DNA of 64,000 nucleotides from Candidatus Aenigmatarchaeota archaeon (GTDB taxonomy: Archaea > Aenigmatarchaeota > Aenigmatarchaeia > CG10238-14): NCBI GenBank assembly GCA_026414305.1, contig JAOAJH010000005.1, forward strand, positions 1,612 through 65,611, in the 5' to 3' direction. Within the stretch, counting starts at the first letter, position 1, and the number at the start of each line of letters is the position of its first letter. Below, in pieces: positions 1,664-54,012 of the stretch. The notes under the pieces are model-generated. The model was not told where the DNA came from and did no database searches. It saw only the letters and a program-made list of their open reading frames with translations. Made by a program: the position numbers and the translations under genes.

Positions 1664-3778
1664 ATGAGTTTGATAAAAAAACTGATTGAAAATAGAGAGG
1701 CAGTAATAGATTTTTCAGTATTAGCTTTGATAACTGTTTTTCTTTTTACATATTTCAAACCAGAGTTTATTTTTTCAGACACAGTCATAAGTGCAGGTGA
1801 CACTGTTGGCCATTATTATGGGGCTTATTTTATGAACAAGCATCTTATACCAAGCCTGAAATTAATAGGATGGAGCAATGACTGGTTTTTGGGCTATCCT
1901 GCATTTCAATTTTACTTTCCCGCCATATTTTTTCTTACAGGAATATTAGGCTACTTGATACCATTGAACATCGCATTTAAAATAGGCACAGTTTTAGGCA
2001 CATTTATGCTCCCTTTTTGTGTTTATTTTGCATTCAAGTTGATGAAATTCAAATTTCCTGTACCAGTGATAGCTTCAACGCTTACTCTCATAACATTATT
2101 CATAGAAAGGGTAGATGAAAACCAAATATATTCTATGTGGGGAGGCAATATACCAAGCACGCTTGCAGGTGAATTTTCATATAGCTTTGCGCTTGCCCTG
2201 TCAATGATTTTTATTGGAACTTTTTATAAAGGCATAAAAACAAAAAAACTTTTGATATTAAACTCGATACTTTTCACAGTAATAATGCTATCCCATTTCT
2301 TTTTTGCAATTTTTGCAGCAATATCAACATTTTTCCACATTTTTGGAATTAAAAAATTCAAACAAAACATTAACTATTGCTTGAAGTTTTATTTTCTTTC
2401 ATTTTTACTCTCATCGTTTTGGCTTTTACCAATGCTACTAAAGGTTTACTACACATCATCCCACGTTTGGTATCCTCCCTCATCAATAAAAGAATACATT
2501 AATATGATTATACCAAAGCCTCTTGTGCCATTTTACATTCTTTCTCTAATTTCTGCAATAATAACTATTGCTAAAAGGGAAAATGAGAACATGATCTTTG
2601 CATTCACTGCAGTTTCATCTCTCTTGCTATTCACAATATCCCCAATTTTAAATAAAGTCGGCTTTCATGGTTTTGATCATTTGCAGCTGATAAAGTTTCT
2701 CCCAATGCTTTATATTTCAATTATCCTTAACATACCTGTTGCTTTTTCATATTTGAAATGGAAAAATTATCTGCTTGTTTTACCTGCCATAGCATTGATT
2801 GCATGCTTCTTATGGGTAGAAAGCCATTCAACCTACATAGACTATTGGATATTTTGGAATTATAGTGGATATGAGGACAAGAGTTTGGGAAAAGAATACT
2901 ACAAAGTAAACGAATTTTTAAAGGGTTTGCCATATGGCAGGGTTGCATACGAGTATGATCCAAAGAAATACGAGTCAACTTTGGGCAGTTCTAGGGCGAC
3001 TGAAACAATACCCATTTTCTCAGGAAAGCCAATAACAGAAGGCACTCATTTTCAGTCATCATTCAACGCACCATATATTTATAGCGCACACTGCGAGTAT
3101 TCTATGGCTTGCTCGTGTGTTTTCGGTCACATGGCAGGTAGATGCCCCTCTTTCAATTTTGATATGGGCGTCGAGCATATGAAGATGTTTGGGGTAAGAT
3201 ACTTTTTTGCGTCTTCAGATAACATAAAAAATATTCTAAGGCAAAGAGATGATTTCCAGCTTCTTTACGGCCCATCTGAATTTGAAATATGGGAATTGAA
3301 ATATGATTATAGCATAATCCAAATACCTGAATATGAGCCAGTTGCCGTCAATTCAAATGATTGGAGAAAAATTTCATATGAATGGTTTTTCAACAAAGAT
3401 AAGATGAAAATACCGCTTATATGGACAAACGAAAATGTCGGGTACAAATCTTATTATGATCCAAACATATATGTAATAGATTCTGTAAAGACAGACTATG
3501 AATGCAGAATTGAAAATGTTGTTGTTGAAAACGAGAAAATAGAGTTTGATACTGATTGCATCGGAAAGCCTCACATAATCAAGGTTTCTTATTTCCCAAA
3601 CTGGAAGGTAAAAGGTGCTGAAAAAATATACATGGTTTCACCTGCATTTATGCTCGTCTATCCAACAGAGAACCATGTAAAGCTTTATTATGGAATGACA
3701 TTTATTGATACAATAGGAATTATATTTAGCTTTATGGGAATATTAATAATATTATTTTCAAAGAGGTTTGGTTTATGA
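1664..3778 (+). CDS. Large polytopic membrane protein of about 12 TM with a ~300-aa C-terminal soluble domain; GT-C-fold glycosyltransferase-like (STT3/YfhO/DUF2079-like architecture, not a canonical AglB)
   Basis: Topology from hydrophobicity. No WWDYG motif was found, so AglB is not called. The TGA stop overlaps the ATG of the next gene (ATGA). Confidence 0.45.
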   Translation: MSLIKKLIENREAVIDFSVLALITVFLFTYFKPEFIFSDTVISAGDTVGHYYGAYFMNKHLIPSLKLIGWSNDWFLGYPAFQFYFPAIFFLTGILGYLIPLNIAFKIGTVLGTFMLPFCVYFAFKLMKFKFPVPVIASTLTLITLFIERVDENQIYSMWGGNIPSTLAGEFSYSFALALSMIFIGTFYKGIKTKKLLILNSILFTVIMLSHFFFAIFAAISTFFHIFGIKKFKQNINYCLKFYFLSFLLSSFWLLPMLLKVYYTSSHVWYPPSSIKEYINMIIPKPLVPFYILSLISAIITIAKRENENMIFAFTAVSSLLLFTISPILNKVGFHGFDHLQLIKFLPMLYISIILNIPVAFSYLKWKNYLLVLPAIALIACFLWVESHSTYIDYWIFWNYSGYEDKSLGKEYYKVNEFLKGLPYGRVAYEYDPKKYESTLGSSRATETIPIFSGKPITEGTHFQSSFNAPYIYSAHCEYSMACSCVFGHMAGRCPSFNFDMGVEHMKMFGVRYFFASSDNIKNILRQRDDFQLLYGPSEFEIWELKYDYSIIQIPEYEPVAVNSNDWRKISYEWFFNKDKMKIPLIWTNENVGYKSYYDPNIYVIDSVKTDYECRIENVVVENEKIEFDTDCIGKPHIIKVSYFPNWKVKGAEKIYMVSPAFMLVYPTENHVKLYYGMTFIDTIGIIFSFMGILIILFSKRFGL

Positions 3779-4827
3779 AAAAGCTGTTTGTCTTTACTTT
3801 TATTTTCATAGTTTTCTTGACAGCTTTGCTAAGATTATACAACCTTGACAACAGGCCGGCTCATTTCGACGAAGGTGGCGGACACGCAATTGGTGTGAGA
3901 ACTCTTATAAATGAAGGTAGATACATTTATGACCCTGACTTTCATGGTCCATTCCTTTATCACATAACTGCTTTAGCATTTATTCTGTTTGGAATGTCTG
4001 ACATAACTTTGAGAGTAACTCAAGCAATATTTGGAATATTAACTGTTGGAATACTTTGGCTTTTAAAAGATCATTTGAAAAAAGATGCATTAATAGCAGC
4101 AGCACTCTTATTGGCAATATCACCCTCGCTTGTCTATTACTCAAGATTTGCAGTCCATGACTCGTATTTTGTTTTCTTTTCAATAGCATTTATAGTGTTT
4201 TTGTTTTTGTATTCAAAAGAAAGAAAAGAAAAATACCTTTATCTAACATCAGCATCCCTAGCATTCTTGTTTACCGTAAAAGAAAATGCATATATTTTTC
4301 TAGCTGTTGTTGGCTTTTGTTTTTTTGTTGAATTTGTAATTGAGAGTATAAGAATAAAAGGAAAATTTTCTAAAAAGATAGCTAAAAACCCATATACTGC
4401 TTGGATAAGACATAATACAAAGCAGCTGGCAATAAGTTTTGTTATTTTTATTGTTATATTTGCTACCATATACACATCATTCTTTAGATATCCACAAAAT
4501 TTCATAATAGCCATTTCAGAACCTTTTAATCATTGGTTGAAAAAATCAACCGAACAAAGCGGTTTTGTTCAACCAGTTGAATTTTATTTCCGAATACTCA
4601 GAGAATATGATACAGCCATATTATTTTTTGGCTTACTTGGAATTATAACACCATTTTTTGCAAACAATAGCTACACTAGATTTGCGTCGATATTTGGATT
4701 TTTGAATTTGATCATATATTTGTTAATGCCTTATAAAGAACCGAACAATATTGTTCATGCTGTGTTACCTTTGGCTATAGCATCTCTTTCATTTTTTGAG
4801 CAGTTGAAAAAGAATATAAAAAAATAG
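3775..4827 (+). CDS. TIGR03663-like / PMT(GT39)-like GT-C membrane protein, membrane portion
   Basis: Loop-1 motif HFDEGGGH resembles the FDE(v)HFG motif of protein O-mannosyltransferases. Multiple TM helices. It ends at an in-frame TAG (4825-4827) and the same frame continues into the 4840-5715 ORF. Confidence 0.5.
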   Translation: MKKLFVFTFIFIVFLTALLRLYNLDNRPAHFDEGGGHAIGVRTLINEGRYIYDPDFHGPFLYHITALAFILFGMSDITLRVTQAIFGILTVGILWLLKDHLKKDALIAAALLLAISPSLVYYSRFAVHDSYFVFFSIAFIVFLFLYSKERKEKYLYLTSASLAFLFTVKENAYIFLAVVGFCFFVEFVIESIRIKGKFSKKIAKNPYTAWIRHNTKQLAISFVIFIVIFATIYTSFFRYPQNFIIAISEPFNHWLKKSTEQSGFVQPVEFYFRILREYDTAILFFGLLGIITPFFANNSYTRFASIFGFLNLIIYLLMPYKEPNNIVHAVLPLAIASLSFFEQLKKNIKK

Positions 4828-4839
4828 TTTAGGGGGATT

Positions 4840-5715
4840 TTGGTTTGGTTGTCATGTGATAGCATTTACATGACTTGGCAAACAAGTTTTGTCAGATATT
4901 CTGATGAAAATAATTATCTTGTTTATGTTCAAACTGTTGATGATATAAAGCCTATGCTTAAATTAATTGACAAAATCACAAGTGAAAGAGGAAGAGACAT
5001 ACCTATATTGGTAAACATACCTGAAACAGAATATCCTCTTTCATGGTATTTCAGAGATTATAGCAATGTCAAATACACCTCAGAAAATATTGAAACGCCC
5101 ATTGGGTGGAAAAATATAAGATGGTCTGGGGATGGAAAAATAATATGGGATGAAAGGGAATATAAAAGCGGGAAGAAAAGCGGGAAAATAGATGGCGGCA
5201 ATGGCACTGACGGGGAGTGGAGGCAAAAAATATCTGTGCAAGGCGGGAGATATTATACAATATCAGGTTGGATAAAAACATCAGATTTGCAGCCTATAAC
5301 TGCTGCTAAGTTTGCTCAACTTTACATAAGAACCGATAGAAATGACGAACCTGACATAATAATAGCTGAAACAGAAAGCCTTACAGGAACAAACAACTGG
5401 ACTTTTGTCCAAAAAAGGTTTTATGTTGATCAAAATGTTAATTTTTTGTGGCTTACTATGCCTATAGGAAATTGGGGTCAAACAAAAGGTCAGGTATGGT
5501 TTGATGACATTGAATTAAGAGCAGAAGGTGACTTTCTCAATCTGATTGAAAATCCAGGATTTGAAGACGGTAAAAAGATATCAGACATAAAAGATTATGA
5601 AATAATGATAATTTCTGAAAGCAATGGTCTGAGCTTCAGCAATTTGGACGGCTATACTTTGAGTAGATATGTTCTAAGACCTGGAGTGAATCTTGTAGTT
5701 TACATAAAAAATTAA
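4840..5715 (+). CDS. Extracytoplasmic domain with CBM4/9-like carbohydrate-binding beta-sandwich; probably the C-terminal part of the upstream GT-C protein
   Basis: Same reading frame as 3775-4827, separated only by TAG plus 4 codons. The track uses a TTG start. Motifs YTISGWIKTSD...VWFDDIELR are typical of CBM_4_9-like domains. Confidence 0.4.
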   Translation: MVWLSCDSIYMTWQTSFVRYSDENNYLVYVQTVDDIKPMLKLIDKITSERGRDIPILVNIPETEYPLSWYFRDYSNVKYTSENIETPIGWKNIRWSGDGKIIWDEREYKSGKKSGKIDGGNGTDGEWRQKISVQGGRYYTISGWIKTSDLQPITAAKFAQLYIRTDRNDEPDIIIAETESLTGTNNWTFVQKRFYVDQNVNFLWLTMPIGNWGQTKGQVWFDDIELRAEGDFLNLIENPGFEDGKKISDIKDYEIMIISESNGLSFSNLDGYTLSRYVLRPGVNLVVYIKN

Positions 5716-7997
5716 CCTAAAAACTTGTATATTATTACCCCATTGTCATAAATTTTAACAAAATTATTTTTATCTAATTCAAACTTTTCTAACCCTTCGT
5801 ACAAGTAATTGTCCTTTTCCATTTTGCCTATATATATAAAATCAACATTATTTTCTTTTAATAAATAAATTGATTCATTTATGTCTGTTGTGTTGTATAT
5901 GAGATTAACCTTTTCGGCAATTTTATTGGCGTTTTTTAATGTGACTTGTTCCGCATGACATAACCATTCAACTAACGCACTTAAACCTGTAAAGGTAGAA
6001 GGTCTTGGATAAAATTCATAAGATATTCCAGGATATTCAAGTATTACATGTTTACCTTTGATGTTTTTATTTATCCATACTATTGCATTATATTCCTCAG
6101 GGTAATTTTGTTTTATAAATTCCATTGAATCAATAGTTAAATAATTCCTACCATAATTTGGTTTAAATAGTCCAGTTTCTGTTATTGAAGTCAAAACTAT
6201 ATACATTATTGATGAAGATAGAAAAATAAAAAATATCGATAGAAATATCATAAATTTAGTCTTTTTCATTCTATCTTTAAAGTAAAATAATATCAAAATT
6301 GTTGCAATATTCCAAAAAATCCATACGCTTTGATGCAATTTAAAGACAAAAACATATCTACCATATATATTAAACAATTCAAATATCCAAATCACAACCG
6401 TACCAAATAATATAGATATTATCAAAAATAACTCCTTATTATCTTCATAAATTTTAAAAATTATATAAAAAATACTCAAAATTGTAAAAGGTACTAAGAC
6501 TATTATAATTTGAAAGTCATAAACCACAGATTTTATACTTAACCAGTTAACATTTATTGGCATGTCAAATCTTTTTGGATCTTGAAAATAACTTAAAATA
6601 ACATTTAAGAACAATATAAAGTATGAAATCATTAAAATGATGAAAAACATTTTTAACTTTTTTGAAACTAAATTGTTAAAAATCTTGTATATAAAATAAG
6701 AATATATCATAAGCATCTGTAGCCCATAAAGAACAAAAAAATTAAATAAACTTGTCTTTAAATTTTCAAAAACCAATCCTGATCTGCTATGATTTAATTC
6801 CATCAAATTTTTTATGGGTTCAAAATAAATAACTAAACTAAGAAAAACTATAATTAAAAATGATATTATTAAATAAAATAAAAATTTTATGTTAATTTTA
6901 CCCTCATAATATATTGAAAATAGACATATACCTAAAAAAATAACATAAATTGGATAATTCCATATAAACTGTGGAAATAGATAACCCAATGATATTGATA
7001 TGATCAATATCTTAACTAATATTTCTTTTAAATTTGAACCAAAAACTCCAAATCCTGAAGAATTAGAATTTAAAATATCAAATATCAAATGGACAAAAAC
7101 AAAAATAAATGAATAAGAAACAAAATGTGCATGTAAATCACCCCATAACAAACTAAACCAGGGAAATTCAGTTATAGTCCACGGTATAACCCTTGTTGAC
7201 CACCAGAACAATTGTCCATCATACAAAAATCTTGAAAAAAAGTTTCCATGATTTGAAACTCTATGTTCTGTTATATTAAATTGAATTTCAGGGTTTATAG
7301 AACTTATTAAATGAAATATTGGTAATAGACTAGATCCAAATGTTATGAGAAACATACATAAAAAAGCTACTTTGTAATTTTTTGTTAAATTAAAACCTAT
7401 AGAAAACGATGAAATTCCTACTAATGCAAAGGCTGTTGCCAAAGATAGGATATAGCCTTTTGATGTTTCTATACCTGAAAGTTTTATTATAATCGCATAG
7501 GAAAAATGGCCAAAGTAATAATATACATTTTCTAGATTTATTCCTGACATCCATGGATATTCTGGAGGTAGTTTTTCTGATCTAATCATACTCTGAATAT
7601 ATGCAAAATCCATTGGACCTTCCCCATGATCCAAATCAGGTCTAAAAGATTTGAAAAATAAAGCTAAAAGAAACAAAGACAAGAATATAATTTCAGAAAT
7701 TATAATATGTTTTAAAAAGTCTTGTTTTTTTATTTCAACTTGATTGAATAAATTTTTTAAATTCAATATATACAAAAAAAGTAAAAAAAACAATGAAATT
7801 AAAATTGTATTTAAACTAAAATTTAAGCCTATTATCCTTGTCAAAAAATAAACAATAAAAGATGCTATCAAAAATGAAAAAGCTTTGTTAATTGAATATC
7901 CCCTATCATGCAAGTTTTTGAATACACCAAAGCATATAGGTAGAGTAACTAAATTAATTAATTGAAATATAAAATACCATAAAAATATTTCAAACAT
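5712..7997 (-). CDS. Chlor_Arch_YYY (DUF2298/TIGR03662-like) polytopic GT-C-like membrane protein
   Basis: 761 aa, highly hydrophobic. It carries YYYFGHF, the YYYxG signature of the family, and is paralogous to 10433-12496 (PPEYPWMSGINLENVYYYFGHF versus PPQDPWFSGHNINYYYFGHF). Confidence 0.6.
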   Translation of the reverse strand: MFEIFLWYFIFQLINLVTLPICFGVFKNLHDRGYSINKAFSFLIASFIVYFLTRIIGLNFSLNTILISLFFLLFLYILNLKNLFNQVEIKKQDFLKHIIISEIIFLSLFLLALFFKSFRPDLDHGEGPMDFAYIQSMIRSEKLPPEYPWMSGINLENVYYYFGHFSYAIIIKLSGIETSKGYILSLATAFALVGISSFSIGFNLTKNYKVAFLCMFLITFGSSLLPIFHLISSINPEIQFNITEHRVSNHGNFFSRFLYDGQLFWWSTRVIPWTITEFPWFSLLWGDLHAHFVSYSFIFVFVHLIFDILNSNSSGFGVFGSNLKEILVKILIISISLGYLFPQFIWNYPIYVIFLGICLFSIYYEGKINIKFLFYLIISFLIIVFLSLVIYFEPIKNLMELNHSRSGLVFENLKTSLFNFFVLYGLQMLMIYSYFIYKIFNNLVSKKLKMFFIILMISYFILFLNVILSYFQDPKRFDMPINVNWLSIKSVVYDFQIIIVLVPFTILSIFYIIFKIYEDNKELFLIISILFGTVVIWIFELFNIYGRYVFVFKLHQSVWIFWNIATILILFYFKDRMKKTKFMIFLSIFFIFLSSSIMYIVLTSITETGLFKPNYGRNYLTIDSMEFIKQNYPEEYNAIVWINKNIKGKHVILEYPGISYEFYPRPSTFTGLSALVEWLCHAEQVTLKNANKIAEKVNLIYNTTDINESIYLLKENNVDFIYIGKMEKDNYLYEGLEKFELDKNNFVKIYDNGVIIYKFLG

Positions 7998-8008
7998 TGA
8001 ATAAAAAT

Positions 8009-16242: not shown

Positions 16243-17361
16243 TTGAGAATAGCGCTTGTTAGTTCAAATTCATTTCATTCTTACGGTGGTATACAAAATC
16301 ATGTGTTGGGTCTTTACAATTATCTTAAAAGCAAAGGTCATTATGTTAAAATAATATCTCCTAAATTCAAAAATGAAAGGCCTGTAAATCATGATCACAT
16401 ATTTGTGGGGCAATCGACTAAAATCAGCATGAATGGTGGCTTGACAGACTTTACAATCCTGACAAAAAAGGATAATTTAAAGCAGCTTTTTGAAAACGAA
16501 AAGTTTGACATAATTCATATACACAACCCCAATCTTATGATATCATTGCAAATTTTGGCAAATTCAAATTCTAAAAATATAATCACCTTTCATGTTTTAC
16601 CTGATCAAAGCTCTTTGTACGGCATTTTTAAGCGTGTGATAAAAGGTCTCAAAAAAATAAAAATTTACAAAAAAATAAACGGTGTAATATATGTTTCAAA
16701 GCCAGTAAAAAAATATTTTGCTAGATACTTTAGATTCAAAAGCCAGATTATACCAAACGGGATTGAAATTGAAAGGTTCAATTCAAATGAAAAAATTGAA
16801 AAGTTCAATGATGGCAAAATAAACCTTCTTTTTTTGAGCAGGATTGAAAAGAGAAAAGGATTGATATATCTTATAAAAGCCTTTGAGATTTTAAGGAAAA
16901 AAAATGATAAAATAAGGCTAATTGTAGCTGGTACAGGCAATCTTGAAAAAGCGTGCAAAAAATATGTTCAAAAAAGAAAAATTCCTGATGTGGAATTTGT
17001 TGGAAGCATAAGCGATGAGGACAAGATAAAGTATTATAACACATGTGACATATTTTGTGCGCCTTCTATATTTGGAGAAAGTTTTGGCATAGTTTTAATT
17101 GAAGCCATGGCAAGTGGAAAGCCCATAGTTGGTTTTGCAAACAAAGGATACAAAACATTGCTTTCTGGTAAAGCAGGAAAGTTTTTGGCAAAACCAAAAA
17201 ATCACAACAGCCTGGCAAGAAAAATAAACATTCTTTTGAAAAACAAAGAATTAAGAGAAGAGATTGGCAAATGGGGAAAAGAGGAAGTGAAAAACTATTC
17301 TTGGAATGTTGTTGGTGAAAAAATAGAAAATTTCTACAGGAGTGTTTTAAATGAAAAATAG
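16243..17361 (+). CDS. GT4 (GT-B fold) glycosyltransferase
   Basis: FGESFGIVLIEAMASGKPIV matches the E-x7-E motif region. Confidence 0.7.
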   Translation: MRIALVSSNSFHSYGGIQNHVLGLYNYLKSKGHYVKIISPKFKNERPVNHDHIFVGQSTKISMNGGLTDFTILTKKDNLKQLFENEKFDIIHIHNPNLMISLQILANSNSKNIITFHVLPDQSSLYGIFKRVIKGLKKIKIYKKINGVIYVSKPVKKYFARYFRFKSQIIPNGIEIERFNSNEKIEKFNDGKINLLFLSRIEKRKGLIYLIKAFEILRKKNDKIRLIVAGTGNLEKACKKYVQKRKIPDVEFVGSISDEDKIKYYNTCDIFCAPSIFGESFGIVLIEAMASGKPIVGFANKGYKTLLSGKAGKFLAKPKNHNSLARKINILLKNKELREEIGKWGKEEVKNYSWNVVGEKIENFYRSVLNEK

Positions 17362-17701
17362 CCTTTTGTTTTTAGCAAGATTTGTTTTTGTATTTCATGT
17401 ATTTTGGGTGCTTTTTGTAATATTTGGTGTGTTTTACAGATACCCAGGCATTTTATGGGATTTGCATCTTTTCATGACATTCGGGCTACTTTTAGGGGTT
17501 TTGCTAAACGAATGCCCTTTGACAACTTTGGAAAGGTATATAAGAAAAAAGGCTGGGCAAAAAAACATTCCAAACAGAGGATCCAGGTTTCTTGAAGTCT
17601 TCAAAGACATTACAGGAATAACTTTACCAAACAACTTGATGAGGGTTCTTGGGTTTGTATACTTTGCTTTGGGCTTGCTGCCCCATTTGGTTAAGTATTA
17701 A
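17351..17701 (+). CDS. Small hypothetical membrane protein
   Basis: 116 aa with 3 TM segments. The start overlaps the stop of the upstream GT4 gene. Confidence 0.3.
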   Translation: MKNSLLFLARFVFVFHVFWVLFVIFGVFYRYPGILWDLHLFMTFGLLLGVLLNECPLTTLERYIRKKAGQKNIPNRGSRFLEVFKDITGITLPNNLMRVLGFVYFALGLLPHLVKY

Positions 17702-17729
17702 AAAAACTAATTTCATAATATTTGTTTGT

Positions 17730-17993
17730 ATGAAAAACCTGAAAATAATATGCTTTGTAGATGATCAAGGGCCTTCGCAAATTCAAAAATCCATAGTGAA
17801 TGATCTACAGAAAGGCTTGAAAAACGTGGAATTTAAAATTGTTGATGTTAAAAGCGATGGAGAAGACATATCAAAGTACAATATAAAAGAATTTCCAAGC
17901 ATAATTATTCAATCTGACAAAGATCATATGAAATTTTCTGGTCTTACGCAGCAGATATTTATAGAAAGGGCAATAGATAAATTGCTCAAATAG
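17730..17993 (+). CDS. Small hypothetical protein, possibly thioredoxin-fold without CxxC
   Basis: In-frame ATG at 17730 (MKNLKIICFVDDQ...) inside the track ORF 17649-17993. Weak call. Confidence 0.25.
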   Translation: MKNLKIICFVDDQGPSQIQKSIVNDLQKGLKNVEFKIVDVKSDGEDISKYNIKEFPSIIIQSDKDHMKFSGLTQQIFIERAIDKLLK

Positions 17994-37557: not shown

Positions 37558-38965
37558 AATAAAAAAAATATCAAGAATGAGATCAAGGACAATTTTTAAA
37601 TTATCTGAACTTATCGGATGTGATAGTGAAAATCTAATCACAACAAGTTTTCATCCACGAGCATCAGTAACTAATTCTCATATTACAGAAGTTCTGATTT
37701 TAAATTTAATTTACCAATACACTAACTTAGAGCCAACATTATTTGGTTTTACATTTGACACACCTTATAAAACAGGAGAAAGAAAAGATAGATCTCCCGT
37801 GATAATTCCTTTCGACAATTATTATATAACTTTGAGGTCCCCTAACAAAATAGGAGGTTTTCCTATATCGCTATCTGCATCTTTAACGGAAAATGAAATA
37901 AGCAGAATTAATTTGGAAACCAAAAGAATAATTAGTGAAAATGGGAAATTGTTACAAAAATATCTAGACAATATACAGTTCGGGCATGTTCTGTTTGACT
38001 TGAGAAGACATGGAACGAAAAAACTAATTGAAAAATCTTGTCAGCGATCAGATATAATAAAAAAGATTTATCTCGATTCAGCAAAAAATAGTACAAATTT
38101 GGGTGATTCTATAACCAAAATTAATTTAGGGCTTCTTCATTTCAATAATTTTAGAATTTATGGCATGCCATTTGATTTGATTATTAAAAATTTTCCTGAA
38201 ATAGCAATTAGTTCAGTAAAAATGTATCCTGAACTGTTTCAGCATATATGTTCAGATGCAAAAAGGTATCCGATATATCTATATTCAAACACAATAAAAT
38301 CAGAATGCCCCAATGGTTGCGTTTTTTCAACCGATAATTTTTTGGAAAGCATAGGGAATAATTTTGTTCCAACAGGTCTCATGTGTCTTGTTTTTTTATC
38401 AATATTTTCGGACCACACAATATGTGGGTCATTCATGAAAGATTATTACATTCAAAATTTACCAAAAGCTAGAGAAATAGCTAGAAACCTTGGTTATGAT
38501 ACTGATTTAAAGATAATAACATTTGAAAGAAATAGATGCGTTCAAGCATACGGAACTTATGACATAGTTTCATTTTTAAATACAATGAGCAATTTAGGAA
38601 GAAACTTTTACCTTAACGGATATATTACAATACCAGAGGATGTAGAAGAGCATCAAAAGTGGATTGAAAGCTATATAAAAGAAAAGAAAATAACTGAAAG
38701 AATAAACGATTTTGAAAGAGATAGTGAATTGACAAGACATTTTTTAGGTTTATTCAATAGGTCTATTTCAAGACCAACGCTTTATGAAATGAGCGTATTT
38801 GGTATAAAACCATATTATGATGGTAATATAATAGTTTCTCAAAAAGGCGAATATTGGACATGTAACATTGAAACTGAAAACAAAGCTATCAGTCAAGGTA
38901 AGTATTATTCATATGATACATCGATAATGCAACCTTGTTATTTTCCTCTAGAATTACAAATTTAA
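37526..38965 (+). CDS. Hypothetical protein, 479 aa
   Basis: Long ORF with coding-like composition. No motif recognised. Confidence 0.35.
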   Translation: MSIKEIKKLIKIKKISRMRSRTIFKLSELIGCDSENLITTSFHPRASVTNSHITEVLILNLIYQYTNLEPTLFGFTFDTPYKTGERKDRSPVIIPFDNYYITLRSPNKIGGFPISLSASLTENEISRINLETKRIISENGKLLQKYLDNIQFGHVLFDLRRHGTKKLIEKSCQRSDIIKKIYLDSAKNSTNLGDSITKINLGLLHFNNFRIYGMPFDLIIKNFPEIAISSVKMYPELFQHICSDAKRYPIYLYSNTIKSECPNGCVFSTDNFLESIGNNFVPTGLMCLVFLSIFSDHTICGSFMKDYYIQNLPKAREIARNLGYDTDLKIITFERNRCVQAYGTYDIVSFLNTMSNLGRNFYLNGYITIPEDVEEHQKWIESYIKEKKITERINDFERDSELTRHFLGLFNRSISRPTLYEMSVFGIKPYYDGNIIVSQKGEYWTCNIETENKAISQGKYYSYDTSIMQPCYFPLELQI

Positions 38966-40947
38966 GTAACCAACCAATTCAACAATCTGTTTAAAATTAT
39001 ATTTCCATCTCCTGTTAGCTTTTCAGCTGAGCTTGCGCCAAACCATCCAACATAAGCATAATTTTCAGAAACAAACAAAGTTGATGATGAATGTTGCCCA
39101 GAATCGGCCAAATCTTTCACAGCTGACGAAAGTTGATAGTCAGGTATAACATTGAATTTTGCGTTTGTTATCACATTGACGCTGCCTGAATAGCCTGATG
39201 TTATTTGATCTGCTGTTGTGACATACATGGATTCTGATCTTGTCATTCCAACAAAGCTTCTTGTGTAGCCAAATCTGAATGATGCTTGAGCATAAGGCTG
39301 ATCAGCTATTTCCAAAAATGGAATGCCTTTTTTGTGAGCTGAAAAGGCAGGATGCGAGCCGTCTATTCTACACGCCTTTAATTCATCAGCACATACAATC
39401 AGCTTGTAATTAAGCAGCTCTTGCTCATTCCAAGACCAATAGCCTTTTGACTGCACAGTCCATCCTCTGCTCTCAATCCACTTTATCATGCTGTTTTCTA
39501 TTCCATAATTGCATGAATCATCCCTGCAGATGAATGCAATGTCTTTGTATATTGGAAGGTTTATTGAAAATGTGTATGCATATGTGCTCATTTCATTTCC
39601 ATACATATCCCTGCACTTGACATAAACATAATAAGTTCCGTTTGCCATTTCATAATTGATTTGATATTTGTGCAAAGGCTCATTGTCACTGAAAGCATAT
39701 TCCATTTCATTGAAAGGTTTGTCCTGATTTATTGAAAATCTGCAATAAGACTTTTCGTCTGTAGTTACCACCATAACAGGTCTTCGTGTGTTTATGCTGC
39801 CTTTTGGATAAACAGACAAAACTTGCGGTGGTTGCGAATCGACTTTGTCAGGCGTGCAGCTTGTTGTTCCGCATGCAAGCCAGTGAATTACTCTGTTTGC
39901 TATTATTGATCCTGCATCTGTCAATTCGCTAAAAGTTTTGTCATTAAACCAGCCGATGTAAGCATATCTGTTAGGTTGAGCTATGAACAAGTTTGCATTC
40001 CCATTTGTTGACAGTATTTTCACAGATGATGTAAGCTGATGGTCAGGTATTGCATTGAATCTCGATCCAATCAAAATCTTTTCATTGCTAAAACCATGAG
40101 TTATTTCATCATGAACTGCATTGAATTCATCGCTCGTTGTTGTTCCGATAAAGCTTCTTGTGTAGCCAAATCTGAATGCTGCTTGAGCATATGGGTGGTC
40201 TGCTATTTCCAAAAATGGAATGCCTTTTTTGTGAGCTGAAAAGGCAGGATGCGAGCCGTCTATTCTGCACGACATCAGCTCATCTGCGCATGCAATCAAC
40301 TTGTAATTAAGCAGCTCCTGCTCTGTCCAAGACCAATAGCCTTTTGCGTTCACAACCCATCCGTTTTCAGTTAAAAATTTGATTATTGACTGCTCCAAAC
40401 CATAGTTGCATTGATCTGTTCTGCATATAAAGGCAATGTTTCCAAACCTTTGCCCTCCTTTGAATGTCAAGGTTGTTGAATAAGCGGGATTTCTTCCAAA
40501 CAAATCTTGCTTTGTTATTGCAGAAACGTTCAATGTGTAAACGCCCTCTGGCCAGTCATACAGCCATCTTATTTTTACCGTCATAATTCCAGAAGTGAAA
40601 CCGTATCCATAACCCCAGTTGTTGCCATTGTCATGCATATAGCCGTAGCTTTGATCCAGCTGCGAAAGCTCAACTGAAATGAATCTGCTGTCCTGGCAAA
40701 CTGGGTTGCTGATATCAAACTCGCATGAAGATTGCTCACCGTTGCCAAATATTGTTATGTTTATTTTCTCTATAGGAACCAATTCATCCCCTATGTTTAT
40801 TGCTGTGTTAATGGTTACAACTTCGTTCGGAAAATAAATGTTCTTGTTTGTCCTTGCTTCAATTTCCAAAGCTTTTGAATTTGAAGAAAAAACTAATAGC
40901 AATATTAAAACAGCTGTAAGCGTTAGTGTAAAAGAATTTTTGTTCAT
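38962..40947 (-). CDS. Secreted protein with an N-terminal GYGYG-containing domain and two tandem ~300-aa repeats
   Basis: Signal peptide. Internal duplication IAFICR(T/D)D(Q/S)CNYG(L/I)E...SHPAFSAHKKGIPFLEIAD...RFGYTRSF appears twice. The N-terminal domain is homologous to that of 59668-60939. Confidence 0.55.
   Translation of the reverse strand: MNKNSFTLTLTAVLILLLVFSSNSKALEIEARTNKNIYFPNEVVTINTAINIGDELVPIEKINITIFGNGEQSSCEFDISNPVCQDSRFISVELSQLDQSYGYMHDNGNNWGYGYGFTSGIMTVKIRWLYDWPEGVYTLNVSAITKQDLFGRNPAYSTTLTFKGGQRFGNIAFICRTDQCNYGLEQSIIKFLTENGWVVNAKGYWSWTEQELLNYKLIACADELMSCRIDGSHPAFSAHKKGIPFLEIADHPYAQAAFRFGYTRSFIGTTTSDEFNAVHDEITHGFSNEKILIGSRFNAIPDHQLTSSVKILSTNGNANLFIAQPNRYAYIGWFNDKTFSELTDAGSIIANRVIHWLACGTTSCTPDKVDSQPPQVLSVYPKGSINTRRPVMVVTTDEKSYCRFSINQDKPFNEMEYAFSDNEPLHKYQINYEMANGTYYVYVKCRDMYGNEMSTYAYTFSINLPIYKDIAFICRDDSCNYGIENSMIKWIESRGWTVQSKGYWSWNEQELLNYKLIVCADELKACRIDGSHPAFSAHKKGIPFLEIADQPYAQASFRFGYTRSFVGMTRSESMYVTTADQITSGYSGSVNVITNAKFNVIPDYQLSSAVKDLADSGQHSSSTLFVSENYAYVGWFGASSAEKLTGDGNIILNRLLNWLVT
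39250..39475. repeat. Near-identical DNA core of the intragenic duplication (copy A)
   Basis: About 220 bp almost identical to 40150-40372, e.g. ccaaaaatggaatgccttttttgtgagctgaaaaggcaggatgcgagccgtctattct. Confidence 0.6.
40150..40372. repeat. Near-identical DNA core of the intragenic duplication (copy B)
   Basis: See copy A. The offset is about 900 bp. Confidence 0.6.
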
Positions 40948-41847: not shown

Positions 41848-41981
41848 ATTTTTTATACTATTCGGTTTACAGAAATCAAAGGTTGAAAAAGATGAAATTT
41901 ATGATTTGAGATGGTTTTATGATGCTTTTTCATGATTCGGCTGGCATAAAAATTTAAAAATCATGAAGATTATTTTGATTT

Positions 41982-42875
41982 ATGAATCGATTTTATGCCA
42001 TTGTGCTTGTTGCTTTTTTGATTATGCCTTTTGCATATGCTGCAGAAGAGGTTTATACAAGCCTTTACATGCTCAACCTTGGCAGGTTTGACATATCAAC
42101 AGGCTCTTTCACTGCTGATTTTTACTTGACATTGGAATGCGAGAAAAGCTGCCCGAAAATTGACTTTGAGTTCATGAACGGCAGGGCCAGTAGCTTTGAA
42201 AAGCTCATAGACCAGCCTGGGTTGAAGTCATACAGAATTCAAGCCAACCTTGTGAGCCCAATAGACTTGAAGAAATTCCCTTTTGACAACCAGACTTTGT
42301 AGATAATAATTGAAGATAAGGAAAAGACAAGGGATGAGATAATATTTGTGCCAAAGTTAAACGAAAGCGGAATAGATCCTTCAATAGTTTTTATTGGATG
42401 GGAGATGGGAGGATGGAATGCTTATGAAAAGGAGCATTATTATGATGTATATGACGAAAGCTATTCCCAATATGTGTTTGAAATTCCCATACACAGAATA
42501 AAAATAAACGCGATTTTCAAGACATTTCTGCCCATAACATTCATAGTGCTTATAATGCTCTCAAGCTTTGTTCTTGATCCTGACAAGATAACAACAAGGC
42601 TTGCAATGGTCGGCTCTGCCTTGGTTGCCTCTGTTATGTTCCACGCCTCTATTTCAAAACAGATTCCGCCTGTAAGCTATCTCACTTTCATTGACAAGTT
42701 CATGATACTGACGTATTTCATAACACTGATGAGCTTTGTGTTCAATGTTTTCATGCTTGAGATGCACGAGGAGAAAAAGGAAAAGGTTGTGGCAAGGCTT
42801 CACAAATACACAGAATTCACAATGTTTCTGCTAGTGCCGTTGCTTTATGCGCTTTTGTTTTTGCTGTTTTTGTGA
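41982..42875 (+). pseudogene. Prokaryotic pentameric ligand-gated ion channel (Cys-loop superfamily, GLIC/ELIC-like) interrupted by one in-frame TAG
   Basis: FPFDNQTL-TAG(42300-42302)-IIIEDKEK lies exactly where GLIC has YPFDSQTLHIYLIV. Downstream in the same frame are M1 with Pro (FLPITFIVLI), M2 and the post-M2 IPPVSYLTFIDKFM matching LPkVSYvkaiDiwm, then M3 and M4. Confidence 0.6.
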
Positions 42876-42933: not shown

Positions 42934-43179
42934 ATGGTTGAGGCTGAATTTGCTTCGTTTAGCGATGACGCAAAATGGTTTTATGAAAATTTTGAAGCAA
43001 TACAAAAAAAGTATTCTGGAAAATTTGTTGCTGTTTTAAAAGAGAATGAAAATAGGTTAATAGAGGCGGAAAGCAGCTTTGAAATGTTGCTTAAAAAACT
43101 AAAGAAAAAAGGCATTGATCCAGCAAAAACATTCATAGAGTTTGTTCATAAAAAAGGGGCTAGAATTATATTGTATTGA
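42934..43179 (+). CDS. Small hypothetical protein (81 aa)
   Basis: Coupled by a 4-nt overlap to the retropepsin-like gene. Confidence 0.35.
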   Translation: MVEAEFASFSDDAKWFYENFEAIQKKYSGKFVAVLKENENRLIEAESSFEMLLKKLKKKGIDPAKTFIEFVHKKGARIILY

Positions 43180-43637
43180 CGTGGTTTTTGATGAGGATTC
43201 GTCTTGAAACAGATGAATTTTTAATGCCATCATTAATTGGTACCATTAGATCAAAAAAATACCACATTTATGGTTTTGTAAAGTTTATTGTCGACACAGG
43301 CAGCAACTACACTGATATAGGTGAAAGAGATGCTTTAAGATTGAACATACCATTCAACAGGATAAAGAAGCTCGAAGAAAGTACAAGACTAGGTGGCACA
43401 AAATGGAATGACTATGAACTTAAAGATGTTTCTTTGGTTGTAAAAGATGAAAACGGAAATAGGGTGGAATTGACATTTGATAGCATAGGTGTTAGGAAAT
43501 GCAGTAAGAGCAAAAATGTAGAAATGGAAAGAGCAATGGAAATGCCATCTATAATTGGCAATGATTTTCTTCATAAAAACAAATTAGCCCTTTATCATGA
43601 CCCTTTTCGCAAGGTTTCATATTTGGAAAGAATTTGA
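43176..43637 (+). CDS. Retropepsin-like (clan AA) aspartic peptidase
   Basis: FIVDTGSNYTDIG carries the DTG(S/A) catalytic motif, and the C-terminal IIGNDFL matches the retropepsin ILGxDFL motif. Confidence 0.5.
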   Translation: MTWFLMRIRLETDEFLMPSLIGTIRSKKYHIYGFVKFIVDTGSNYTDIGERDALRLNIPFNRIKKLEESTRLGGTKWNDYELKDVSLVVKDENGNRVELTFDSIGVRKCSKSKNVEMERAMEMPSIIGNDFLHKNKLALYHDPFRKVSYLERI

Positions 43638-49057: not shown

Positions 49058-50080
49058 ATGGCATACAAGTACAAGCCTAAAACGCAAACAAACAAAGCTG
49101 TTTTAATTGGTATTGCTATCACTGCTTTTGTTATTGGATTGCTGCTTTTGCTTCCTGGCAAAGATGAAAGGCCTCTGGAAGTAAGGTTGCAAGAGTATTT
49201 GATGAAAAAAGTTCCTAGGAATGCTACTGTTGCTGTTGAAGGTGTTGATCCTGCTGTACTTGATAAAATTGAAAGGCCGATTGTTTGGCTTGCTAATTAT
49301 ACACCTTCGAAAGAACCGATTGATTTGAATGTCACTATAAGAGGCAGCCATAAATTATGGGTATATTTGGCTGATGGTGAAGATTTGGAATTGAATTTGT
49401 CAAAACAGGACTTGAATTGGTATAATGGAACTGATGTTTTGAGGATTGAAGTTTACAATCCGGATTTGAAGTTGGTTTATAATTATAGCATTGAGGATGA
49501 TGGTATTGATGTTGTTGAAAAGCAGTTTGATCCAAAGATGCTTGGAAAAGAGCAGTTTCATAGGGTTTTTGTAAAGAATAAAGGGCAAGGGGCATATAAA
49601 ATATTGTTGATTTCTCAAGCTAAAGGAGATGATTTTTATATTCATTTAAAGTCGACAATGCAGAATAAGATGGTATTTCAGGATAAAATTTATATTTATC
49701 TCTATGATAATTTTTGGTTTAATTGTTTAAAATATAATTGTAATCTAAATTTTATGACTTATCATAATAGTAGTTTACAAAATTTTAATATAATATGTAC
49801 AAAAAACAATTATACAATAAGTTTAAATCAAACTAACAAAATTTTCAATTTTACCACAAAAAATGATGAAAATAATTGTAAATTTTCTAAAATTGAAAAC
49901 CACAAATCATCAGAAAAACAAAAAACAAGTTTAATTTTTAGTTCAAATAAAATTTCTTTTTTTATATATCAAAATTCATTTTTCTATCCATATTCTATAG
50001 TTAACAAAAATTCTGATTATTTGGTTATTTTTAAAGAAAATAAAATTTTTCAGGTGAAAAATATTGAAAAAAAATATTGA
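49058..50080 (+). CDS. Membrane-anchored protein whose ORF runs across a compositional junction; the C-terminal third is a low-complexity Asn/Lys/Ile tail
   Basis: Residues 1-210 have normal composition (signal/TM, beta-rich). From about nt 49685 the DNA becomes extremely AT-rich and the translation is low-complexity. The real gene probably ended or was truncated near 49685. Confidence 0.4.
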   Translation: MAYKYKPKTQTNKAVLIGIAITAFVIGLLLLLPGKDERPLEVRLQEYLMKKVPRNATVAVEGVDPAVLDKIERPIVWLANYTPSKEPIDLNVTIRGSHKLWVYLADGEDLELNLSKQDLNWYNGTDVLRIEVYNPDLKLVYNYSIEDDGIDVVEKQFDPKMLGKEQFHRVFVKNKGQGAYKILLISQAKGDDFYIHLKSTMQNKMVFQDKIYIYLYDNFWFNCLKYNCNLNFMTYHNSSLQNFNIICTKNNYTISLNQTNKIFNFTTKNDENNCKFSKIENHKSSEKQKTSLIFSSNKISFFIYQNSFFYPYSIVNKNSDYLVIFKENKIFQVKNIEKKY

Positions 50081-51683
50081 ATTTAAAAATGCGGAAAAAA
50101 TTTTTTTATTCATACTTATAATGACAATATCTATATATATTTATTTAATTAATCCTTATAAAAATACAAAATTATTTTTTACACCGGATGAATATTCATT
50201 CTTTTTTTATTCTCAAAAAATATTAAAAAATAATTTCTTTTTGAATGAAAATATTTTAAACAATAAGTATTCAACAACCGCTTTTTCTCCATATTTTTCT
50301 TCATACTCAGACAAAGGCGATTTGTTAAAAGACCATTTTGGTTATGTTATATTCCTTTCATTATTATCATTGTTTATAAAAATAACAAATATACCGGTTA
50401 TTATTACAATATTTAATTTATTTTGTTTTTTTTTAATATCTGTTTCATTTTTGAAGAAAAGTATTTCATTTGTCTCCTTATTAATATTTTCATTATTCCC
50501 AGTATTTTTACATTTTTATCCACTATTATTTTCTGACAACTTAGGTTTGATTTTTTTCTGTCTATGGTTCTACAGCACTAGAAAAATTGAATATTCTAAT
50601 TGGAAAATAATGTCCATAATTTTTTCTTCTTTCCTAACATTAATAAGATATGTAAATGTCATTTTTTTAATTTTTACTATTTTAATTTTAATTTACAAAA
50701 AAAACATTAGAATATTATTGACTATATTTCCATTAATTATTATTTTTATGTTATTTCCAATCATATTAATTAATATTATATACTATGGAAACCCTTTTGT
50801 TTACCCACAATTTGAAAATTCAAAAAGTGTACTAGATATTAACAAATATCCATATAAAAAATATGATATTCAAAGCAATATAAACAAATCCTCTTTTTTA
50901 TCTTATATAAAAGAGTATTTTGACATAAATTCAATATTATTATCATTTAAATATCTAATTTTTTTTAGCCCTCTAGCTCCATTGTCTATAATAGGTATTT
51001 TTTTATTAATAAAAGAGTTATTTATCTTTGGAGATAAAATAACAATATCTATAATGATTCTTCTACTCATTTACATGATTTTTATGTTTAGTATAAAAGA
51101 CATATTTAGAGTTAGTAATGTACCTTCACTACATGACTCTTTATCAAGATACTTAATTCCTGTATTTTCATTTATTATAATCTTGATATCAAAATCATTA
51201 TATTATAAAAAAAATAGTCAATATTTAGTATCGATTTTGATTTTTTTAATAATAACAATATCGATTTTAAATTTATACAATGTAACTATTGAGGATCCGC
51301 TCAATTATATTGTAATAAAAGAAAAAATCATGTACTACCAGAAAATACATGATAAAGTAATTTCTAATACGGAAAATAATTCGATAATTATAACATCTGT
51401 ATGGGAAAAAATAATATATCCAGAAAGAAATGTACTAGTTTATATAAGAATACCAGAAGAAATAAGACTTGATGAAATAAACAGAATTGTCAAAGAGTTA
51501 AAAAATGATTCTTATGATGTATATATTTTAGTTACTAATACTGAACTTAAATATTATAAAGATACTTCTGACAAAAAAATAAAATTTTATGATGTAATTA
51601 ATAATTTAAATGATAAATTCAAAACAGAAATGATTTTATCAGATAATGATTTAGATTTAATAAAAATTGGTGAACTAAAATGA
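50064..51683 (+). CDS. Polytopic GT-C-like membrane glycosyltransferase (ArnT/PMT-like)
   Basis: 539 aa, more than 12 TM. Loop-1 TPDEYSFFF has a DE motif as in ArnT/PMT families. Very low GC. Confidence 0.45.
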   Translation: MKKNIEFKNAEKIFLFILIMTISIYIYLINPYKNTKLFFTPDEYSFFFYSQKILKNNFFLNENILNNKYSTTAFSPYFSSYSDKGDLLKDHFGYVIFLSLLSLFIKITNIPVIITIFNLFCFFLISVSFLKKSISFVSLLIFSLFPVFLHFYPLLFSDNLGLIFFCLWFYSTRKIEYSNWKIMSIIFSSFLTLIRYVNVIFLIFTILILIYKKNIRILLTIFPLIIIFMLFPIILINIIYYGNPFVYPQFENSKSVLDINKYPYKKYDIQSNINKSSFLSYIKEYFDINSILLSFKYLIFFSPLAPLSIIGIFLLIKELFIFGDKITISIMILLLIYMIFMFSIKDIFRVSNVPSLHDSLSRYLIPVFSFIIILISKSLYYKKNSQYLVSILIFLIITISILNLYNVTIEDPLNYIVIKEKIMYYQKIHDKVISNTENNSIIITSVWEKIIYPERNVLVYIRIPEEIRLDEINRIVKELKNDSYDVYILVTNTELKYYKDTSDKKIKFYDVINNLNDKFKTEMILSDNDLDLIKIGELK

Positions 51684-52864
51684 TAATATTAGATTGTGTA
51701 CCTGCAGGTGTCATACCACCAAAGGGGGGTGGGACAAAAAGAATACATAATATAAATTTGTTTCTATCAAAATACTATAAAATATTAATGTTTTCTCACG
51801 GTATTAGAAAGTTTGAATTTAAACTTCCATTGAATTCATGGGTAAAAAAAATAAATTATAATTACTATGAAGTAAGATATATTGATCCATATTTTATAAT
51901 TTCATCTTATCTTTTAAATAAACTTTATAATATTGGTCCGATATTTTCAAGTAACTTTTTATTTATAAACAACCCAAATTTTGTAAAAAATCTAATTAAT
52001 AGTTCTGATATAATAAAAATTGAACATCCATGGCAGTTTAAATATTTTCATAATATGAATAAGAAAAAGGTTCCAATTATTTTAACCTTACACGATATTG
52101 GAATCGAACTAGCTTTACAGACAATTAAAAATGGTTTTCTGAAAAAAAAATTAATTAAAATAATTAGTACAATGGAAGATTTTGCAATAAAAAATGCCGA
52201 CAAAATAATAGTTGTTTCTGAGGATGACAAAAAAAGGTTGAAAGAAATATATGGAACAGAAAATAAAAAAGTAGTTGTTGTTCCAAACGGTGTAAACACG
52301 AAAGAATTTAAATCAACATCAAATAAAGAAGAAATAAAGAAGAAATATGGTATGGAAAATAAAAAAGTAGTTATTTTTTCTGGATGGAAACACATACCAA
52401 ACCTACATGCTGTGAATCAAATAATAAAAATATCAAAAGATTTAAACGAAAAAAATGTTGTTTTTATAATAATTGGAAGTGTTGGTGAATTTTTTAAAAA
52501 AATCAAATCAAATAATATTATATTTACTGGTTATGTTGATAAAGTAGACGATTATTTTGCTATGGCTGACCTGGCATTAAATCCGATGATTTCTGGTACC
52601 GGTACAAATATAAAGATATTGGAATATTTGTCATATGGAATACCTACCATAACTACTAAAAAAGGGTGTCGGGGTTATAACTTAATTAACCGCAAAGAAG
52701 CATTAATATGTGATTTAAAAGAATTTCCTGAAAAAATATCATACTTACTCAACAACGATATTATGAGAAATAAGCTTTCATTTTATGGAAAAAAATTTGC
52801 AAAAAAATATGATTGGAACAATATAGCTAAAATAGAAAAAAAAATATATGATGATATTATATGA
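51680..52864 (+). CDS. GT4 glycosyltransferase
   Basis: GT-B architecture. C-terminal ALNPMISGTGTNIKILEYLSYGIPTI region. 4-nt overlaps with neighbouring genes. Confidence 0.6.
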   Translation: MIILDCVPAGVIPPKGGGTKRIHNINLFLSKYYKILMFSHGIRKFEFKLPLNSWVKKINYNYYEVRYIDPYFIISSYLLNKLYNIGPIFSSNFLFINNPNFVKNLINSSDIIKIEHPWQFKYFHNMNKKKVPIILTLHDIGIELALQTIKNGFLKKKLIKIISTMEDFAIKNADKIIVVSEDDKKRLKEIYGTENKKVVVVPNGVNTKEFKSTSNKEEIKKKYGMENKKVVIFSGWKHIPNLHAVNQIIKISKDLNEKNVVFIIIGSVGEFFKKIKSNNIIFTGYVDKVDDYFAMADLALNPMISGTGTNIKILEYLSYGIPTITTKKGCRGYNLINRKEALICDLKEFPEKISYLLNNDIMRNKLSFYGKKFAKKYDWNNIAKIEKKIYDDII

Positions 52865-54012
52865 AAAAAATAATTTTAATTTCCTTCGAATATTTTCCAT
52901 ACAAAGATGGTGGCTTGTCTAGATATTCTTACGAACTAACAAGAGAATTTTTTAAACTAAAAAATATAAAGTTTAAATTGATTATAGGGTTTCCAAAAAA
53001 TCATAAAAAACCAAAAGAAAATTATATAATTCCCATTGAAGTTGAATTTTATAATAATAAAATTCTTTCATATTTATTTTTTTCATGGAAAGTTTACTTT
53101 AAACTCATCTTTATGAAAAACAAAGAAAATTTTATTATTCATGCACTCAATCCTTGGAGTTATTTCTTTATTCCAAAAATTAAAAAAGTAAAATTTGTAC
53201 TTACAGAACACAATATAATTTCAAAGCAAATTAATATGGCATATGGATCATCAATACTCGATAAAATTTTAAGATATATTTTTTATATTTTTTTCTCTTT
53301 TTGGGAAAGGCATCTTTGCCAAACAGCTGATAAAATAATAGCTGTAAGTAAATCTACTAAAAATGACTTGATGAGATTTTATAATATACCTAATAAAAAA
53401 ATTGAAGTGATTTATAATGGTATTAATTTTAAAAATTTTTCTCCGGTTAAAATAAGATTCAATAAAAAAAGAAGAAATCTTTTATTTGTTGGTAGAATTG
53501 TCCCAAGAAAAGGTTTAGAATATTTGGTTGAAACTATATTCTTAATTAAAAAAGAAATATCTGATATAAAACTTTATATAGTTGGTAAAGGAGAAAATGA
53601 TTATTTAATTAAATTGAAAAAAATGATAAAAAAAATGAATCTCGAAAAAAATATTAAATTTTTGGGTTTTATTGAAGATAAAAAATTAAATAAAGTTTAT
53701 TCTATGACAGATATTTTTGTTTTTCCAAGTTTAGTTGAAGGTTTTGGATTAGTCCTTTTAGAAGCTATGACTAAAGGTAAACCAATAGTTGCCACTAATA
53801 TAGGTGGTGTCAATGAGGTTATTATCAATGGTAGAGATGGTATTTTAGTAGAGCCAAAAAAACCAAAAAAAATGGCTGAAGCAATTATTAAACTAATAAA
53901 TGACGATAAATTATATAATAAATTTTCTCAAAATGCAATAAAAAGTGTAAAAAACTTTTCATGGAAAAAATCAGCAAAAAAAGTTTATGAAATATATAAT
54001 CATTTAAGTTAA
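52861..54012 (+). CDS. GT4 glycosyltransferase
   Basis: FPSLVEGFGLVLLEAMTKGKPIVATNIGG (E-x7-E motif). Confidence 0.7.
   Translation: MKKIILISFEYFPYKDGGLSRYSYELTREFFKLKNIKFKLIIGFPKNHKKPKENYIIPIEVEFYNNKILSYLFFSWKVYFKLIFMKNKENFIIHALNPWSYFFIPKIKKVKFVLTEHNIISKQINMAYGSSILDKILRYIFYIFFSFWERHLCQTADKIIAVSKSTKNDLMRFYNIPNKKIEVIYNGINFKNFSPVKIRFNKKRRNLLFVGRIVPRKGLEYLVETIFLIKKEISDIKLYIVGKGENDYLIKLKKMIKKMNLEKNIKFLGFIEDKKLNKVYSMTDIFVFPSLVEGFGLVLLEAMTKGKPIVATNIGGVNEVIINGRDGILVEPKKPKKMAEAIIKLINDDKLYNKFSQNAIKSVKNFSWKKSAKKVYEIYNHLS

Follow-up and report, generated by a model that had tools for sequence, protein, structure and literature searches.

The window, the whole 64-kb stretch of DNA analyzed here, carries a gene for a GLIC-like ion channel of the pentameric ligand-gated type (pLGIC) whose reading frame is interrupted by a single amber codon. 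This stop is likely the result of an ordinary and recent CAG-to-TAG nonsense mutation in a dispensable channel gene, leaving either a young pseudogene or a null allele in the MAG consensus. The gene lies on the forward strand at 41982-42875 and consists of 297 codons followed by TGA, and translation confirmed the one in-frame amber of the original prediction, with exactly one internal stop, TAG, at 42300-42302. Owing to this TAG at codon 107, the frame does not run uninterrupted from the signal peptide to M4, as it would in a functional gene. The ORF listing instead breaks the gene into two ORFs of the same frame, 41982-42302 (106 aa) and the GTG-started 42348-42875 (175 aa). These are identical to GenBank proteins MCX8178915.1 (N3D75_03750; identical to the N-terminal fragment) and MCX8178916.1 (N3D75_03755; identical to the GTG-started ORF), each named "hypothetical protein" and both from one 73,110-nt contig of one Candidatus Aenigmarchaeota MAG. 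The annotation can be corrected accordingly: the two "hypothetical proteins" are the halves of one nonsense-broken pLGIC gene, of which we found no second copy in the window.

Upstream of the gene, 21-36 nt before the ATG, we read an A/T-rich box, ATAAAAATTTAAAAAT, at 41946-41961 (+), which may be a TATA-like archaeal promoter element serving a transcript with a short leader. The start codon opens a hydrophobic, signal-peptide-like N-terminus (residues 1-21, MNRFYAIVLVAFLIMPFAYAA, 41982-42044, +); residues 2-14 form a helix in the AlphaFold model, and the N-termini of homologues at the same position are hydrophobic and variable. The 106-aa N-terminal ORF fragment (41982-42299, +) covers the first part of the extracellular beta-sandwich through the Pro-loop signature FPFDNQTL (residues 99-106, 42276-42299, +), which aligns with YPFDSQTL of GLIC. 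The Pro-loop is the counterpart of the Cys-loop in animal receptors. Past the amber codon, the in-frame remainder (residues 108-297 and the TGA, 42303-42875, +) encodes the remaining extracellular domain and four predicted helices, the transmembrane domain at 42501-42869 (+) being placed by the AlphaFold helices, a PF02932 match at residues 182-267, and the GLIC transmembrane alignment. Four transmembrane helices had been predicted from the sequence, and the AlphaFold helices at residues 174-198 (42501-42575, +), 200-226 (42579-42659, +), 231-263 (42672-42770, +), and 267-296 (42780-42869, +) are read as M1, M2, M3, and M4, respectively.

Searched as a single sequence, the protein matched both pLGIC domains of Pfam in the right order, weakly and below their gathering scores (PF02931, 19.2 bits versus 26; PF02932, 26.9 versus 28.1), and several close homologues carry precomputed PF02931 or PF02932 matches. 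A profile built from 31 family members matched PDB chains of GLIC with an E value of about 1e-22, the aligned part (residues 89-300) reaching from the Pro-loop to M4. The AlphaFold model (pLDDT 77.9) has beta strands over residues 22-172 followed by the four helices, and a Foldseek search of the PDB placed GLIC first among the matches listed (E 1.7e-16, probability 1.00); the other matches listed were pLGIC chains as well (GABA-A rho1, GLIC chimeras), with TM values of 0.5-0.57 over about 305-315 aligned columns. Sequence features of the superfamily are also present: the [FY]P.D feature occurs as FPFD at residues 99-102, with P100, F101, D102, and Q104 invariant in the 31-sequence alignment, and the post-M2 proline occurs in IPPVSY (227-233), with P229 invariant. 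Both segments align with the equivalent segments of GLIC in the profile alignment. In the 31 sequences, DPDK is invariant at the M1-M2 junction and IPPVSY follows M2, and IPPVSYLTFIDKFM was found in the translated frame. Together, the fold and sequence-profile matches therefore establish membership in the pLGIC (Pro-loop receptor) superfamily at those two levels, as the original prediction of a GLIC-like channel had proposed. From profile and model, the model being of a monomer only, the predicted gene product would be a compact prokaryotic-type pLGIC of ~300 residues, a Pro-loop receptor.

By the same profile and structural comparisons, the closest characterized relative of the window gene is GLIC, the proton-gated channel of Gloeobacter violaceus (e.g., PDB 3EAM). 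Both have an extracellular beta-sandwich with a Pro-loop and four transmembrane helices (predicted here), join M3 to M4 by a very short link, lack the Cys-loop disulfide, and are about 300 residues long, and the Pro-loop YPFDSQTL of GLIC corresponds to FPFDxQxL in the DPANN clade that contains the window gene. The two differ in that identity is only about 18-19% in the structural alignment, that His127 of GLIC is Gln, Glu, or Lys in the DPANN clade at the interrupted site, and that the clade has its own invariants in the 31-sequence alignment, among them DPDK ahead of M2 and the CxxxC pair of residues 53/57. The window copy, unlike GLIC, is broken by a stop.

The TAG directly follows FPFDNQTL. 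It thus occupies the first position past the motif, where the next strand begins, and is not strictly within the signature loop, where it had first been placed. It had also been described as replacing the His of GLIC: the column does stand opposite GLIC H127 (YPFDSQTL-H-IYLIV), but the residue of the family at this column is Gln, Glu, or Lys, not His. Among 70 homologous loci from GTDB and JGI with a recognizable motif, the codon here is CAG in 25, CAA in 20, GAA in 13, GAG in 4, AAG in 2, and others in 6; none of the 70 has a stop, and the proposed check of orthologues thus returned a sense codon at every locus. The two closest relatives that we found (L001 and L082, 80-81% amino acid identity) have CAG within an identical peptide, FPFDNQTLQIIIEDK. 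Over the 39 nt from TTG (Leu97) through CAG/TAG, four bases separate them from the window: three synonymous third-position differences and the C/T at the stop itself. The presence of CAG in an identical context in the closest relatives indicates that the amber at codon 107 (42300-42302, +) stands in place of an ancestral CAG and was derived from Gln107 by a CAG-to-TAG (C-to-T) transition. No same-species allele was available for comparison, the GTDB scan giving nothing above 79% and the JGI protein-guided scan nothing above 81%, and the exact DNA pattern had no match in JGI metagenomes.

The rest of the gene is undecayed. All 86 of the columns that are invariant in the 31-sequence alignment are kept in the window protein, which deviates at 3 of the 101 columns conserved at >=95% when compared with 120 intact homologues; two of these deviations are common to its nearest relatives, and at least 3 such deviations are seen in 33 of the 120 intact homologues, so the window protein falls within the normal range. 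Frame and conservation therefore continue across the stop, as had been noted from the sequence, and alignment to homologues revealed no further frameshifts or stops. Recent pseudogenization is the best fit of the three options offered by the original prediction, and the intact remainder suggests that the mutation is very recent. The same total lack of other decay would also be expected of a gene that is still expressed by readthrough, which counts against the pseudogene reading, as does an equally pristine family gene elsewhere that has TAG at the invariant Gln104 and is identical in five datasets.

It is rather unlikely that the true codon 107 is CAG and that the T at 42300 is a consensus or assembly error or a polymorphic minority allele. 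Such an origin would suit a single-base difference from the closest relatives in a gene without other damage, and a MAG consensus can mix strains; moreover, assemblies are least reliable near the ends of contigs, and two other stops in the family lie just 15-21 nt from such ends. The window stop, in contrast, is deep inside the 73-kb contig and far from the ends of the 64-kb window, in which the channel gene is the only broken one among ~64 ORFs at 93% coding density. The lack of a stop or frameshift in any other gene of the 64 kb means that the assembly does not look error-prone. We estimate roughly that no more than a few percent of random substitutions make stops, which renders a random error much less likely than a pseudogene, and the comparable TAG allele of another lineage, identical in five independent datasets, shows that real alleles of this kind exist. 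Prokaryotic genomes normally hold some young pseudogenes. Given the position of the site in a long contig, the absence of other damaged genes in 64 kb, the low share of substitutions that yield stops, and the normality of young pseudogenes in prokaryotes, we infer that the stop is a real mutation and not an assembly error.

We suggest that a single C-to-T transition in a chromosomal DPANN pLGIC gene turned Gln codon 107 into amber. Because TAG is an ordinary terminator here, translation would end after the Pro-loop, and the product would be a 106-residue secreted fragment unable to form a channel, making the allele null or nearly so. Full-length protein would be possible only by trace near-cognate readthrough, probably inserting the original Gln. 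Glutamine is among the residues inserted during natural suppression of UAG in yeast (PMC4150775), and by analogy with yeast, residual near-cognate readthrough of UAG in this gene would most likely insert Gln, the ancestral residue. Checks of the window for tRNAs, Rfam families, and RNA folds gave no sign that readthrough is programmed.

We consider it improbable that the UAG is usefully read through, which would make this a low-expression or regulated allele instead of a dead gene. The decoder would most plausibly be a near-cognate tRNA-Gln restoring Gln, or else a suppressor or Pyl tRNA encoded elsewhere. Perfect conservation on both sides of the stop is consistent with such tolerance, as are the ancestral Gln, given that Gln can be inserted at UAG in yeast (PMC4150775), the second pristine case at Gln104, and the clustering of in-frame stops in codons 104-111 across lineages. 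A programmed readthrough site, however, is expected to keep its stop at the same position in orthologues, and here all 70 loci have a sense codon. The search for a suppressor tRNA(CUA) found none, nor any other tRNA, in the 64-kb window, where Rfam families gave no match either; RNA structure in the 130 nt spanning and following the TAG was no better than in shuffled sequence (z = 0.11), and no other amber-containing gene was found in the 64 kb. TAG terminates many ordinary genes in the window and in the lineage with TAG at codon 104 alike, the other stops of the family replace Glu or Ile and two of them are TAA, so that no single decoding rule fits, and the way in which the cases were found introduces some bias into the evidence from clustering. 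In Archaea, stop-codon readthrough has been demonstrated for Sec and Pyl only (PMC8211752). The genes mtmB, mtbB, and mttB of Methanosarcina, which encode pyrrolysine-containing methylamine methyltransferases, resemble the window gene in being archaeal genes that are intact apart from an in-frame TAG (PMC8211752), but their TAG is conserved among orthologues and their genome has pylT and pylS, whereas the TAG of the window gene occurs in no orthologue, replaces an ancestral CAG, and has no tRNA or structure nearby.

The use of TAG elsewhere in the window leaves virtually no probability for a genome-wide reassignment of TAG to sense, for which the continuation of the frame past the TAG is the sole support. 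Of the 64 selected ORFs, 10 end in TAG, 28 in TAA, and 26 in TGA, and besides the channel gene TAG terminates 9 ORFs in the window, some with complete domain matches. Several of these have their next in-frame stop only 1-15 codons downstream, and in ORF statistics with alternative stop sets, coding length hardly grows when TAG is taken as sense, which would merge unrelated genes. In a code with TAG as sense, conserved genes would often contain this codon and none would end in it, a pattern that the window does not show, and no other gene in the 64 kb needs TAG as sense. Reassignment is thus effectively refuted by the ORF statistics and the TAG-terminated genes, and we rejected it as well on every TAG-separated ORF pair, none of which supported it; apart from the channel gene, the long pairs in one frame are unrelated neighbors, each having a start of its own. 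In one such pair, a PMT_2 glycosyltransferase ORF at 3775-4827 (+) ends in TAG, and a CBM-like ORF at 4840-5715 (+) follows 4 codons on in the same frame; the second has its own TTG start preceded by AGGGGGA, a G-rich run resembling a ribosome-binding site, so the two are judged separate genes and a single TAG-containing gene at 3775-5715 was rejected. The thioredoxin-like ORF at 17649-17993 and the helicase are likewise separate genes, and we also rejected a candidate second broken gene at 17351-17993, which proved to be two complete small genes, DUF2784 and thioredoxin-like.

The two ORFs of the channel gene could alternatively be expressed separately and reassemble into a split channel, a gene fission that we regard as highly unlikely. 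Split genes are known in Nanoarchaeota, both halves are annotated here as separate proteins, and the lineage with TAG at codon 104 has an ATG one codon past its stop (L097). In the window, by contrast, the next start is the GTG 16 codons downstream, the use of which would delete the invariant IIIEDK segment, and about 50 residues of the C-terminal piece would need to be exported although it has no signal peptide; moreover, no orthologue is split here as a conserved state.

Verified in-frame stops in other family members all fall within codons 104-111 (window numbering), though they differ from that of the window in lying at codons 104, 109, and 111 and in being of mixed types. TAG at the invariant Gln104 was found on contigs that are 100% identical in five datasets (L097-L101), of which three are SRA runs and two are JGI samples from Lake Tanganyika (3300020109 and 3300020083); the gene is otherwise pristine, and TAG terminates its neighboring genes too. 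One locus has TAG at the invariant Glu111 (L102), another TAA at codon 109 (L086, position 548), and a third a 1-nt deletion in codon 106 (L103). Two more have TAG and TAA at Glu111 (L111 and L112), and these are less trustworthy because they lie 15-21 nt from contig ends. In independent lineages of the family, an 8-codon stretch thus holds TAG107, TAG104, TAA109, TAG111 twice, TAA111, and the codon-106 deletion, with at least two of the genes otherwise pristine, and the stops at codons 104-111 in other lineages hint at tolerance above chance. Amber107 might accordingly mark something other than simple gene death, the site after the Pro-loop tolerating a stop by way of leaky tRNA-Gln readthrough or a restart at Met106, although we think this very doubtful. 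If true, the gene would encode a knocked-down or conditionally expressed channel and would offer an example of stop-codon readthrough in Archaea that is neither Sec nor Pyl, but any bearing on archaeal stop-codon decoding depends on the recurrent stops near the Pro-loop being shown to be non-random.

Most of the clustered cases came from a search with the N-terminal fragment or were chosen as ending near the site, and the N-terminal-fragment search appears to be length-biased, since it gave only proteins of 102-177 aa. In an unbiased search of representatives, fragment ends ranged over residues 64-270 and frameshift-type breakpoints were scattered over the whole gene, with 5 in-frame ends at residues 103-110 versus about 1.7 expected, an excess of only about 3-fold. 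The starts of C-terminal fragments varied (65, 106, 131, 142, and 149), and one C-terminal fragment (P0323) is a scaffold N-gap. Codons 104-111 hold 3.5-5.8% of the nonsense opportunity of the gene versus 2.7% by length, so mutational opportunity does not explain a hotspot. Across these sequence comparisons, clustering of stops beyond chance and search bias is suggestive but unproven. In one ENA scaffold (L113), the family gene seems to be split at about 1170-1205, but the cause is a run of N, a scaffolding gap, with a frame change, which indicates that some database "fragments" are assembly artefacts.

The family is also broken elsewhere by other means, including IS200/IS605 insertion and replacement by a gene cassette. 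In another population (L104-L109), the family gene is cut after codon 96; past the cut, one contig (L106, 390-1025) has an IS200/IS605-type element that carries a gene for a Y1 transposase and has ccactggtctttgaccagtgg as its terminal hairpin, and the other contigs of the set mostly end shortly past the break, as repeats tend to cause. A further locus (L110, 2501-3341) retains a remnant of the family gene (residues about 8-121) followed by two small ORFs, one of 71 aa that matches DUF7557 weakly and one of 114 aa. From their sequences, these small genes look like an inserted toxin-antitoxin-type cassette replacing the 3' part of the gene, which would make this an older pseudogene.

DPANN archaea have small cells and are mostly uncultured, and nearly all of them appear to retain a highly conserved GLIC-like channel. 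In contrast to the original expectation that pLGICs are rare in archaea, the family is not rare in DPANN: GTDB, searched with one genome per species, encodes relatives of the window gene in at least 144 stretches, each from a species representative, and metagenomes hold hundreds of further proteins. We kept the best 80 of these 144 stretches together with 15 further loci from the JGI metagenome scan. Among 5.8 billion proteins searched, 373 homologues were found; the best 120 are all uninterrupted, 291-331 aa long, and 58-80% identical to the window protein, and the source names shown are nearly all Candidatus Aenigm-, Pace-, Woese-, or Nanoarchaeota. Identity across these four groups is 55-80%. 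MAGs of Leptospiraceae and Planctomycetota contain outlier copies with about 50% identity, a distribution suggestive of horizontal transfer, and one JGI contig (L087) has tandem, distant pLGIC-like genes at 12-659 and 920-1753 with about 31% identity. We found no relatives of the channel gene on viral contigs.

In the parts of Jaiteh et al. (2016) available to us, microbial pLGICs are described as sparsely distributed, non-essential, and frequently lost (PMC4795631), which fits a fresh pseudogene in the window. The window gene resembles the Pro-loop receptors treated in those parts in being a Cys-less microbial pLGIC (PMC4795631). The archaeal members of the inventory given there belong to Euryarchaeota and Thaumarchaeota, with no mention of DPANN in those parts (PMC4795631), whereas the DPANN clade described here is widespread and 55-80% identical across phyla. 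Among the top-ranked matches of a literature search, "ligand-gated ion channel" was never paired with DPANN lineage names. Being compact and abundant, the widespread and conserved GLIC-like channel of DPANN is a target for studies of the structure and physiology of prokaryotic pLGICs.

The channel gene sits in an ordinary, compact part of the chromosome, the window also encoding topoisomerase I, a DEAD-box helicase, glycosyltransferases, DUF2298 membrane proteins, and an RNA ligase. Beside the channel gene, at 38962-40947 (-), is a gene for a 661-aa secreted protein with no firm Pfam match and an internal duplication of two ~200-aa modules that share ACRIDGSHPAFSAHKKGIPFLEIAD; a longer ADELMSC... 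stretch differs between them at three residues. Two Aenigmatarchaeota MAGs (L003 and L002) also encode this protein close to the channel gene, with 46-63% identity, so the locus is partly syntenic. Directly downstream of the channel gene, two overlapping small ORFs at 42934-43637 (+) look from their sequences like a two-gene module, one of 81 aa with a DUF5678 match just below the Pfam cut-off and one of 153 aa that weakly resembles retropepsin-like aspartyl proteases. GC content dips to 0.20-0.23 at 50001-54000 and 6001-8000, versus a window mean of about 0.33. The ORFs in these dips have no Pfam matches and adjoin polysaccharide-synthesis and DUF2298 genes, and the regions may be a horizontally acquired or fast-evolving surface-glycan island.
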